From Acidobacteriota bacterium (GTDB taxonomy: Bacteria > Acidobacteriota > Blastocatellia > RBC074): a DNA stretch of 64,000 nt. Made by a program: the position numbers and the translations under genes. The number at the start of each line of letters is the position of its first letter. Position 1 is the stretch's first letter. The notes below the pieces were generated by a model. The model was not told where the DNA came from. It saw nothing but the letters and a program-made list of their open reading frames with translations, and made no database searches. This document shows positions 41,032 through 43,050 of this stretch, in pieces. Location: positions 29,781 through 93,780 of the forward strand of contig JBBIWA010000014.1 in NCBI GenBank assembly GCA_037439425.1, in the 5' to 3' direction.

Positions 41032-41450
41032 GGTCTTCTCCTTAGAAAATCCTGGGCAGGCACGCATCCTTACTTGCCTGCCTTCGTTAAGCAAGCCATT
41101 ACTGGAGACCGATCACGCTAGATCAGCGTGCTTGCCCGCGCGCTGCGCGCAAGCAGGCGCTCCAAGTTTTTCATCATCTCAGGGCGTCGTCCGTGACGAC
41201 CTGCAAGACTCCTGCGGAAGATCCTGGGAGCGCACGCATCCTTGCGTGCTCGCCTAGTTAAGAGTGAAAATCTTGCACGCTCGCAAGCGTGCGCTCCTAG
41301 GTTTTCATCATTTCTCCCGTGTCGTCCGTGACGACCTGCAAGACTCCCGCGGAAAATTCTGGGTACGCTGCCCGTCTTGCCTGCAAAGCATTTTCGTGGC
41401 TCTCGGGGCGTCGTCAAAGACAAGGTGTAAAAACTCCCCAGAAAATGCCA
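41032..41450. repeat. REP/BIME-like structured repeat cluster (about 2.3 tandem copies of an about 170-bp unit), homologous to 12606-12850
   Basis: Units start with gaaaatcctggg/gaagatcctggg/gaaaattctggg. Each carries the hairpins GCACGC-atcctt-GCGTGC, GCACGCT-N5-AGCGTGC and GTCGTCcgtGACGAC. Confidence 0.7.
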
Positions 41451-42195
41451 GGCCAAGCGGTTAGTTGGCACTTGTCTCCTGCGAAACCAGGTGTGGCGTA
41501 AGTTGCCAACTGGCGCTCCAGTATTTTCATTCTTCGGTGCATGCACTTGCCTGCGCGCCGCGCGCAAGCAGGTGAGCACTGCGCAGACGTTAGTTTGACA
41601 AGGTCTCAAAGATTAAAGTGTAAGCCAAGCACCTGTCACTCGCTGACCTGAGGGATCTGCCTGTACAGACTCAGGATGAGCCTAAATGATCAATTCGGGA
41701 TTGTCAACGTCTGTGGCCCTAGCAGATTGAGCTGATCGGCTGCGGCCCACAGTCGGTGCGCCAAGCAGAACTTGGTAGGCATCAAGCAGCTAACCTTATT
41801 TCGATTCGCTACCAGAGGTCTCATCAGGTCTGGCCTGTTATTGAGCAGACAGACTCGAAGAGTCACCACTTTCTCACCACCCGCCTCGCTGCAGCGGCCA
41901 GGCAGAAGCATTGGTCCGAGCCCCAATCAGGTTACATCCCCCTGCGACTGGCCCACTACTGATCGGCAAAGCTTCTCCTGAGAGGGTAGAAATCTCTTCT
42001 CCTTTCAGAATCAGGTACCACAAGCAGAAAAATCTCTTCTCTACTCTCACCTTGATTATGCGCCCAATTCGGCCTCTGCACTCTTTGTGTTGCAATAGTC
42101 GATAAGCCGTTTTTCGTGCAAAATCTGGGTGAGAAGATAAGATTAGGAGAGGAGCCTGGAGTATAAACTGAACATCTGTATTCCATCTAATCGCT

Positions 42196-42412
42196 GTCGC
42201 CCGCCTGCGCGGGCTGATGGTTGGTGATCCAATTTGATAGGTCTCCGTTGCTGCCATCGCCCGCGTGTGCGGGCGGGAGTCTCAAAGCTGTAAGTGTTCG
42301 GTCCCATCCCACAGCCCGCGAATGCGGGCAGCAGCTTAAAGCCCAGCTTGGAGCGCGCAGCGCGTGACCCTGGGAGAGGCTGGACAAATGGTTCCCAGCC
42401 CGTGAAACGGGC
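42196..42412. repeat. Array of four GC-rich hairpins GCCCGC-N4-GCGGGC / GCCCG-N5-CGGGC at irregular 56-80-bp spacing, preceded by an AT-rich tract
   Basis: gtcgcccgcctgcgcgggc (42196), atcgcccgcgtgtgcgggc (42258), acagcccgcgaatgcgggc (42313), ccagcccgtgaaacgggc (42395). Stems are conserved. Loops and flanks differ. Confidence 0.5.
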
Positions 42413-42732
42413 GGCAGCCATTACTCATACCGCTACACTCATACAACTAGTTAGGCTCCTACCTGACCAGAACCAGATTGACAGCTACCAGGAATGGCCT
42501 CGCTCAGAAGAGAGAGCTCTACACAGGGCTGGCTTGCGTGCTGATCTCTTCAACGGCCTGTGGCAAGAGCCTTCGCGCCAGATCCTATAATGCGGCTTGA
42601 CAGACTTGAGAAGACCGCTATCTTCTCACCTATGCCTCACGCATAGGCAGATTCTGAGGCTGGCTTGACCAACTTTAGAAAACTTTGTCCTCCTTTTTCT
42701 ACCAAGTCCTACTTGGCACACCCGCCCACAGC

Positions 42733-42966
42733 GGGTGCACGTCTTTATTGTAGGGTGAAAAAGCAGTAAGGATCGGTGGTGAGCCCCGGTGGGGGCATCA
42801 GATGATAGCGAGTCTGAGCCAGCGCGGGTGGGTCCAGGTCTGGAGAGCCTAAGGCCAGCCCCGGCCGGGGCTGGTGGTGGGCGAGAGCTTTCTCTCCACC
42901 AGCGCCCCTAGCGGGGCTAAGGCTTCAACCGATCTTCTTTTGACCCTACAATCGTGACGTGCACCC
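42733..42966. mobile_element. MITE-like element copy 2 (234 bp) with perfect 11-bp TIRs GGGTGCACGTC and 9-bp target-site duplication GCCCACAGC, inserted just upstream of tRNA-Pro
   Basis: Left end is gcccacagc|GGGTGCACGTCtttattgtagggtgaaaaag. Right end is cttttgaccctacaatcgtGACGTGCACCC|gcccacagc. The internal sequence is about 90% identical to the arms of the 1979-2561 copy. Confidence 0.7.
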
Positions 42967-43050
42967 GCCCACAGCTTTGCGGTTGACAAGGCAAACTCTG
43001 GCTCAGTAATATGACTTCTCGTCGCGACCGGCCGTGACTTGAGAGAGTAT

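Follow-up and report, generated by a model that had tools for sequence, protein, structure and literature searches.

What fills a 2-kb space without genes in DNA where genes otherwise stand close together, and how did it come to be there? The locus in question lies in a 64,000-nucleotide (nt) stretch of an Acidobacteriota genome (Blastocatellia; positions 29,781 to 93,780 of contig JBBIWA010000014.1, assembly GCA_037439425.1), which we call the window and number from its first letter. The tract at 41034-43050, free of open reading frames (ORFs), measures 2017 nt; no other gap in the window is as large, the median being 74 nt. It forms a divergent promoter region: a zinc-ribbon membrane protein gene (here ZnR2) leaves it on the minus strand, and on the plus strand it is followed by tRNA-Pro(CGG), acyP, apt, and a P450 gene, in that order. 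We find that the tract is very probably an ancestral promoter region of ~290 nt that was swollen, in this lineage only, by three non-coding mobile insertions: an array of repetitive extragenic palindromic (REP)-like units, a 970-bp element (E970), and a 234-bp miniature inverted-repeat transposable element (MITE; M234).

The evidence that carries this reading comes from a sister lineage. A search with the ZnR2 protein, for which an identical 181-aa protein is on record (P0001), led to an 87%-identical protein (P0002) whose contigs (L089-L092) belong to four independent assemblies, two from JGI metagenomes and two from SRA runs. The sister lineage is ~91% identical in DNA, with ~84-92% identity across this region over roughly 20 kb, and its contigs are collinear with the window (apt, acyP, tRNA-Pro, ZnR2, a second Zn-ribbon gene, carbonic anhydrase, M14 peptidase, and others). 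An earlier first-pass annotation, made from the sequence alone, had proposed asking by syntenic alignment whether ZnR2, tRNA-Pro, and acyP are normally contiguous; in the sister they are, and the spacer from tRNA-Pro to ZnR2 is 288 nt in L089-L091, the contigs that hold both genes. The spacer sequence is identical in all four assemblies, L092 terminating within it. A close relative with the same 2-kb spacer and no repeats had been named as the outcome that would speak against an insertion hot spot. The repeats are indeed absent, L089 having zero copies of any of the three blocks, but so is the 2-kb spacer. The hot spot is supported both by this 288-nt spacer without the blocks and by the identical 9-bp target that two of the elements share.

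When 41047-41578 and 41754-42975 are taken out of the window, what is left aligns over its full length to the sister's 288-nt spacer. The alignment junction coincides exactly with a target-site duplication (TSD), and similarity to relatives picks up again at 42966/42976. The empty site in L089-L092 reads GCGGCCC-CAGC, directly followed by TTTGCGGTTGACA (junction sequence GCGGCCCMCAGCTTTGCGGTTGACA), and in the sister GCGGCCC-CAGC directly precedes tttgcggTTGACA, the same flank that lies to the right of the M234 TSD. Because the window aligns to the relative's spacer once the insertions are removed, the extra DNA is a lineage-specific gain and not a scar. The lengths agree closely, 288 + 532 + 979 + 243 giving 2042 nt versus the 2017 nt observed. 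In the remaining ancestral spacer, a TTGACA-N17-TAGGCT sequence on the minus strand (41707-41679), conserved with the sister by eye, is a possible candidate for the ZnR2 promoter. The tRNA-Pro promoter is intact, identical in the sister lineage, and also kept in more distant Blastocatellia. Those more distant genomes are too divergent to reveal the ancestral spacer: the apt protein has at most 84% identity to any species representative searched, the representatives retrieved through it keep only tRNA-Pro-acyP-apt, and tRNA-Pro is preceded, in five Blastocatellia genomes, by a gene that differs from one genome to the next and stops 53-273 nt short of it.

Two of the three insertions have the ends of transposable elements. 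E970 is bounded by 25-nt terminal inverted repeats (TIRs; 41754-41778 and 42699-42723, sequence GGTGYGCCAAGNAGNACTTGGTAG) that are complementary at 21/25 positions, and by a 9-bp TSD matching at 8/9. Taken together, TSD and TIR match at 29/34 positions, against a maximum of 22/34 in 2000 resamples. A 24-nt inverted repeat 920 nt apart, reported by a repeat finder, marks the same ends, which were also found independently, and the element is missing from the sister lineage exactly at the TSD. Its interior holds an AT-richer stretch, four REP-like hairpins, and an outward-facing promoter-like site. The first-pass annotation had counted three unrelated repeat classes in the tract. All three were found, well beyond chance, with corrections of detail described below, but they are not all separate, since this one TIR/TSD element encloses both the hairpin array and the AT-rich segment. 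The AT-rich character that had been noted upstream of the hairpins holds for ~41980-42190 (GC content of 0.43 versus 0.56 for the window) and not for the rest. The four-hairpin array itself stands as described, with three exact units and a variant at 42398. GCCCGC-N4-GCGGGC was found three times (42199, 42259, and 42314) versus 0.16 expected, and the ~30 nt shared among the hairpins have the consensus GCTGYC-GCCCGC-N4-GCGGGC-TGRKGG.

M234 contains no ORF and folds as a single long hairpin (z = -8.6 relative to shuffled sequences, as for all folds below). Its TIRs have 31-nt arms that are 87% complementary, and it is flanked by a perfect 9-bp TSD, GCCCACAGC. What had been read as a 14-nt TSD is really this 9-bp TSD plus CACCC, the terminus common to both elements. 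The description of an intact, TIR/TSD-bounded MITE is correct, although it does not abut tRNA-Pro itself: on its downstream side, 16 nt separate it from the -35 hexamer of the tRNA promoter, and its right TSD copy ends 7 nt before that hexamer. Three copies of the target bracket E970 and M234, so that the full order is GCCCACAGT, then CGGTGCGCCAAGCAGAACTTGGTAG...CTACCAAGTCCTACTTGGCACACCC (E970), then GCCCACAGC, then GGGTGCACGTC...MITE...GACGTGCACCC, then GCCCACAGC and tttgcggTTGACA. In the ends of both elements, positions 1-5 read GGGTG and positions 26-31 read AAAAAG, and both elements hold internal GC hairpins with 4-nt loops, those of M234 being GCCCC-N4-GGGGC, three inside each copy. The second copy of the family, at the far left of the window, is split by a nested array (~358 nt) of 50-nt repeats; all four ends of the two copies fit the TIR pattern. 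Four units (TTTCAGCTCCGTTAKGAGCGGCCTGTTTATAGC...) make up this nested array (2097-2456), each carrying a small GCTCC-N-GGAGC hairpin, and they are unique in the window. Next to this copy, the flanks 1950-1978 and 2571-2600 resemble by eye the inner MITE inverted repeat (ATTGTAGG on the left, TTTTATGACCCTAGA on the right), which may mean that this copy inserted into what was left of an earlier member of the M234 family.

The third insertion is the composite array nearest ZnR2, placed between the ribosome-binding site of that gene and the remaining spacer. Tandem REP-like units are present here as first described, but not as 2.3 copies of ~170 bp: two units with periods of 172 and 135 nt precede two degenerate ones that extend to 41580. 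Within each unit, an inverted REP doublet (CCTGGGAGCGCACGC-N6-GCGTGC) is joined to a linker that bears the hairpin GTCGTC-CGTG-ACGAC. The REP palindrome is ~27 nt long, CCTGGGAGC-GCACGC-N6-GCGTGC, and a 27-nt GC palindrome at 41131 is repeated at 41546. The doublet at 41223-41301 folds as a single hairpin (z = -5.5), and so does, with the same z score, a doublet at 12618-12700 in a second cluster. The core CCTGGGAGCGCACGC has 12 matches in the 64 kb versus 4.6 expected, ~10 of them intergenic, in six intergenic regions and in both orientations; the hairpin GCACGC-N3-8-GCGTGC occurs eight times versus 0.19 expected. Besides the tract array, the window has five further intergenic sites of this family. 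Contigs assembled from short reads of the same organism break within the REP family or within a MITE inverted repeat, as is expected of multi-copy DNA: L083 stops at 41095 in the tract array, and L087 runs from ~2534, in the right-hand inverted repeat of the second M234 copy, to ~12645 in the second REP cluster.

Several further features of the REP family were seen. The arrays at 12606-12630 and 41034-41050 adjoin the start codons of minus-strand genes, and the reverse complement of the REP linker (CCGCAGGAGTC) is the Shine-Dalgarno-like sequence of the gene at 11589-12605. ZnR2 transcription may, judging by the layout, run through a REP-filled leader of ~530 nt. Lone REP hairpins lie at 32401 and at 46602-46629, within stretches (32331-32426 and 46505-46661) that do not align with the sister, where the genes for enoyl-CoA hydratase and an old yellow enzyme (OYE)-type oxidoreductase overlap. 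The copy at 46602 falls inside a 128-aa ORF of the Logan assembly that has no Pfam match and is maybe spurious.

Other readings of the tract place a scar, a degenerate array, or a function where we see insertions. It had been suggested as a possibility that an element was excised here or decayed and left the tract as its scar; such an element would be a genomic island or prophage once integrated at tRNA-Pro. The tract does adjoin a tRNA gene, and gene order beyond tRNA-Pro varies among distant relatives. It lies, however, on the 5' (promoter) side of the gene, whereas tRNA-targeting integrases use the 3' part; the 22-nt 3' end of the tRNA is not repeated in the window, even with up to 3 mismatches, and the window genes scanned include no integrase. 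Gene order in the sister lineage is identical on both sides, and the empty-site alignment accounts for the extra DNA as three repeat insertions with defined ends, after removal of which the spacer aligns. A scar of this kind is therefore extremely unlikely. We give just as little credence to the hairpins and the AT-richer stretch being a degenerate orphan clustered regularly interspaced short palindromic repeat (CRISPR) array with its leader. Three of the hairpins do stand at 60- and 55-nt spacing with an AT-richer stretch upstream, and type I-E and I-C CRISPR repeats have a similar stem. Against this, the orientations are mixed (U1 runs opposite to U3 and U4, and together with U2, at 42190-42285, it forms one long REPIN-like hairpin with z = -5.4), the spacing of 60, 55, and 84 nt is irregular, only ~30 nt are shared with loose flanks, no cas domain occurs in the window genes examined, and the entire block sits within a TIR/TSD-bounded insertion. 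A CRISPR array was rejected on its mixed orientation, irregular spacing, and lack of cas genes among the window genes examined.

The unique 1.1 kb could also be a decayed coding gene, either the transposase of a dead insertion sequence (IS) of IS1 size or a host pseudogene. In its favor, ORFs of 98-127 aa occur in the tract, and 970 bp with TIRs and a 9-bp TSD falls in the size range of the smallest ISs, such as IS1. We scored coding potential with a 3-periodic Markov model trained on the long ORFs of the window, taking the best frame in 150-nt windows. From ~40850 to 43100 every score is below zero with the sole exception of +0.7 at 41400, and the flanking genes score +10 to +19. The eight tract ORFs have no meaningful Pfam match (no relevant one at E ≤ 1), the stop-free segments of 41560-42740 that reach 45 aa or more, searched as one concatenate, have zero homologues at E ≤ 0.01 among 5.8 billion protein clusters, and a small-ORF scan of the tract found none with a convincing start and ribosome-binding site. 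As for IS1 itself as a parent, tblastn with E. coli IS1A InsA/InsB gave chance matches outside the tract, the ends sharing only a loose GGTG..CCAA, and this candidate was rejected. A decayed gene is accordingly very improbable, and the first-pass view of a gene-free 2 kb is upheld by coding score, Pfam, protein clusters, and gap size. Slightly less improbable, though still quite unlikely, is that E970 carries or is a functional noncoding RNA (ncRNA), whether a four-hairpin RNA or a small RNA started at the promoter-like site at 42597-42624 and terminated at a hairpin in which the E970 end pairs with the MITE inverted repeat. On either strand, the hairpin zone as a whole gives a better fold than shuffled sequences do (z = -3.8 and, on the opposite strand, -3.5), the U4 stem is preserved despite base changes (GCCCGT/ACGGGC), and the promoter-like site is sigma-70-like at 10/12 positions. 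Folding equally well on both strands is, however, the behavior of a DNA palindrome, and the remainder of E970 folds no better than shuffles (z = -1.5 and -1.4). The block is absent from a lineage only ~9% divergent, so it does not serve a conserved host function. A search of Rfam over the tract at E ≤ 1, which had been recommended, returned tRNA-Pro and no other RNA family, apart from a spurious sub-threshold plant microRNA match that arises from a long REPIN hairpin. There is likewise no evidence for the ncRNA that had been suggested in 41620-42190, most of which is E970 interior (from 41754) with no Rfam match at E ≤ 1 and z = -1.5. No homologous locus for covariation was found in metagenome, plasmid, phage, or viral sets: the MITE, E970, the TIR pattern, and a hairpin-zone pseudo-protein had no match in plasmid, phage, and viral collections, a metagenome scan with the pseudo-protein of 41877-42281 gave one match (L084) that is due to chance (a forced 8-aa pattern seed, with stop codons), and the three-hairpin pattern matched only one unrelated simple tandem repeat in viral contigs.

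It is also important to point out what weighs against an origin by mobile insertion. The window genes that were scanned or had precomputed Pfam annotation contain no transposase, integrase, or RAYT/Y1_Tnp domain, and neither a cognate transposase nor a RAYT was seen among them. The main REP hairpins of both types have no adjacent GTAG or CGTC tag, CGTC occurring only in the linker hairpin. E970 is present once in the window and has no further copy in the loci retrieved, so its mobility is argued from TIR, TSD, and empty site and not from copy number. Similarly, GCCCGC hairpins occur nowhere else in the 64 kb, in ~10 kb beyond, or in the relatives' loci, and "REP-like" describes their form and not their dispersal. 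The target of the second M234 copy is AGGCGYGGT, unlike that in the tract, which means that target preference is not strict and that reuse of the same 9 bp is only partly explained. Finally, it is conceivable that E970, the TSD, and M234 came in together as a single composite.

With these points taken into account, stepwise growth of a short promoter region to 2.0 kb, by at least three lineage-specific gains of non-coding, non-autonomous repetitive DNA, remains the reading that we favor. The present order, TSD-E970-TSD-M234-TSD, probably reflects the action in trans of a cut-and-paste transposase of the DDE type, encoded at another place in the genome, that mobilized both elements, making 9-bp staggered cuts with some preference for this target. 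The REP units would have spread by any REP-mobilizing activity that the genome may have or by local duplication. The site presumably tolerates insertions because both promoters and both genes remain intact. No cellular function is needed to explain anything in the tract. A more far-reaching idea is that E970 and M234 are an undescribed acidobacterial family, with GGGTG...AAAAAG ends, arrays of GC hairpins with 4-nt loops, and a site-preferring transposase that repeatedly strikes the same 9 bp immediately upstream of a tRNA promoter. Taken furthest, this idea would make the four-hairpin block a structured-RNA cargo that is mobile, and not a set of inert palindromes; we regard the idea as unlikely. 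The coordinates of all features are collected in the table.

Table. Features of the tract, its flanking genes, and related repeats elsewhere in the window, in order of position
Feature	Position	Strand	Basis or remarks
Second M234-family copy	1979..2561	.	92-94% identical; own 9-bp TSD AGGCGTGGT / AGGCGCGGT
Second REP-family cluster	12606..12990	.	Touches start codon of minus-strand gene; folds z = -5.5, -4.3
ZnR2, Zn-ribbon/DUF4870 membrane-protein gene	40485..41033	-	Pfam DUF4870 and Zn_Ribbon_1; reads away from tract
Composite REP/REPIN-like array, four units, 532 nt	41047..41578	.	Repeats; absent from sister lineage
Ancestral spacer segment	41579..41744	.	41583-41707 aligns to L089 at 76%
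Target copy 1, left TSD of E970, GCCCACAGT	41745..41753	.	Empty site in relatives
E970, 970-bp non-coding TIR/TSD element	41754..42723	.	TIRs, TSD, empty site
Four REP-like hairpins	42193..42420	.	Repeat search, inverted repeat, alignment, folds
U1	42199-42214	+	GCCCGC-N4-GCGGGC
U2	42259-42274	inverted vs U1, aligns less clearly	GCCCGC-N4-GCGGGC
U3	42314-42329	inverted vs U1	GCCCGC-N4-GCGGGC
U4	42398-42412	inverted vs U1	Variant GCCCGTGAAACGGGC
Promoter-like site TTGACA-16-TATCTT	42597..42624	+	Consensus scan 10/12; faces MITE and tRNA-Pro; predicted
Target copy 2, GCCCACAGC, right TSD of E970 and left TSD of MITE	42724..42732	.	Target-site comparison
M234, 234-bp MITE	42733..42966	.	TIRs start GGGTGCACGTC; absent from sister lineage
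Target copy 3, GCCCACAGC, right TSD of MITE	42967..42975	.	Target-site comparison
tRNA-Pro promoter TTGACA-18-TAATAT	42983..43012	+	Consensus scan; predicted
tRNA-Pro (CGG), right edge of tract	43051..43125	+	ARAGORN, Rfam (43051-43124), synteny
acyP	43224-43496	+	Downstream of tRNA-Pro; synteny
apt (adenine phosphoribosyltransferase)	43522-44073	+	Downstream of acyP; synteny

The surroundings of tRNA-Pro offered some observations of their own. The gap between tRNA-Pro and acyP contains a long heptamer inverted repeat (43133-43213), with 2.3 copies of AAAGGCA facing 4.6 copies of TTTGCCT; it is almost identical in the sister lineage and, on sequence grounds, may be a tRNA terminator or an acyP regulatory hairpin. 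A 36.7-kb Logan contig of the same organism (L001) begins in tRNA-Pro (43071) and not at the MITE, and the 5' half of tRNA-Pro is probably common to another tRNA-Pro gene. Further downstream, most of the P450 gene (44253-45186 of 44078-45463) has no counterpart in L089, which has two tiny ORFs there, and in more distant relatives a tRNA-Arg(CCT) directly follows apt instead of the P450 gene. In a distant Acidobacteria relative (L019, 1-2708), a tight cluster of 13 tRNA genes lies ~7 kb from acyP-apt.

Taken together, an apparently mysterious 2-kb "dark" region can now be parsed fully into stacked insertions, with boundaries placed to the base pair and an empty site as the control. The results point to a recent expansion of REP- and MITE-like repeats in a Blastocatellia lineage, as a ~91%-identical relative is without them over a syntenic locus of ~18 kb, and these repeats fragment short-read assemblies of the organism. 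That one 9-bp target beside a tRNA promoter was reused by two different elements is a modest curiosity.

How do these repeats compare with known systems? A 9-bp TSD fits several IS families, IS1, IS4, IS5/IS903, and IS256 among them. Bacterial MITEs are matched by M234 in its 234-bp length, ~31-nt TIRs, 9-bp TSD, lack of an ORF, long hairpin, presence in at least two copies, and a relative with the empty site. E970 matches them in its TIRs, TSD, empty site, and non-coding nature, but it is large (970 bp) and was seen in one copy, and for neither element was a parent IS or transposase found in the window or in the plasmid, phage, and viral sets. What the two share is limited to the terminal GGGTG and subterminal AAAAAG. 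Mobile insertion cassettes (MICs) are TIR-bounded, transposase-less elements of ~1 kb with passenger sequence, and E970 is similar, except that its passenger is non-coding hairpins and not genes. IS1397, which targets bacterial interspersed mosaic elements (BIMEs), offers a parallel for nested or tandem insertion at repeat-rich sites. The locus resembles such cases in that the same short target was reused and a 50-nt array is nested in the MITE copy at 1979-2561; it differs in that the target of E970 and M234 is a plain 9 bp and not a REP loop.

The tract array agrees with REP dimers and REPINs as published (PMC3116915, PMC3733652), save for the tag and the RAYT gene. An unpaired GTAG or CGTC tag at one end is a criterion for REPs (PMC3733652), whereas the main hairpin of the tract is tagless and the genes scanned in the 64 kb include no RAYT. 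Two arrays, moreover, lie at gene 5' ends touching the ribosome-binding site and not at the usual 3' or convergent positions, and the GCCCGC-type units are confined to E970. In other respects the repeats resemble the REP/BIME/REPIN class: short GC-rich extragenic palindromes occur in both orientations at several intergenic sites, inverted doublets form a bigger hairpin, units are clustered or in tandem with conserved linkers, and the family is lineage-specific, missing in the ~91%-identical relative. Each of the repeats is thus of a known kind, and their accumulation, as non-autonomous repeats at a permissive divergent promoter region, is ordinary.

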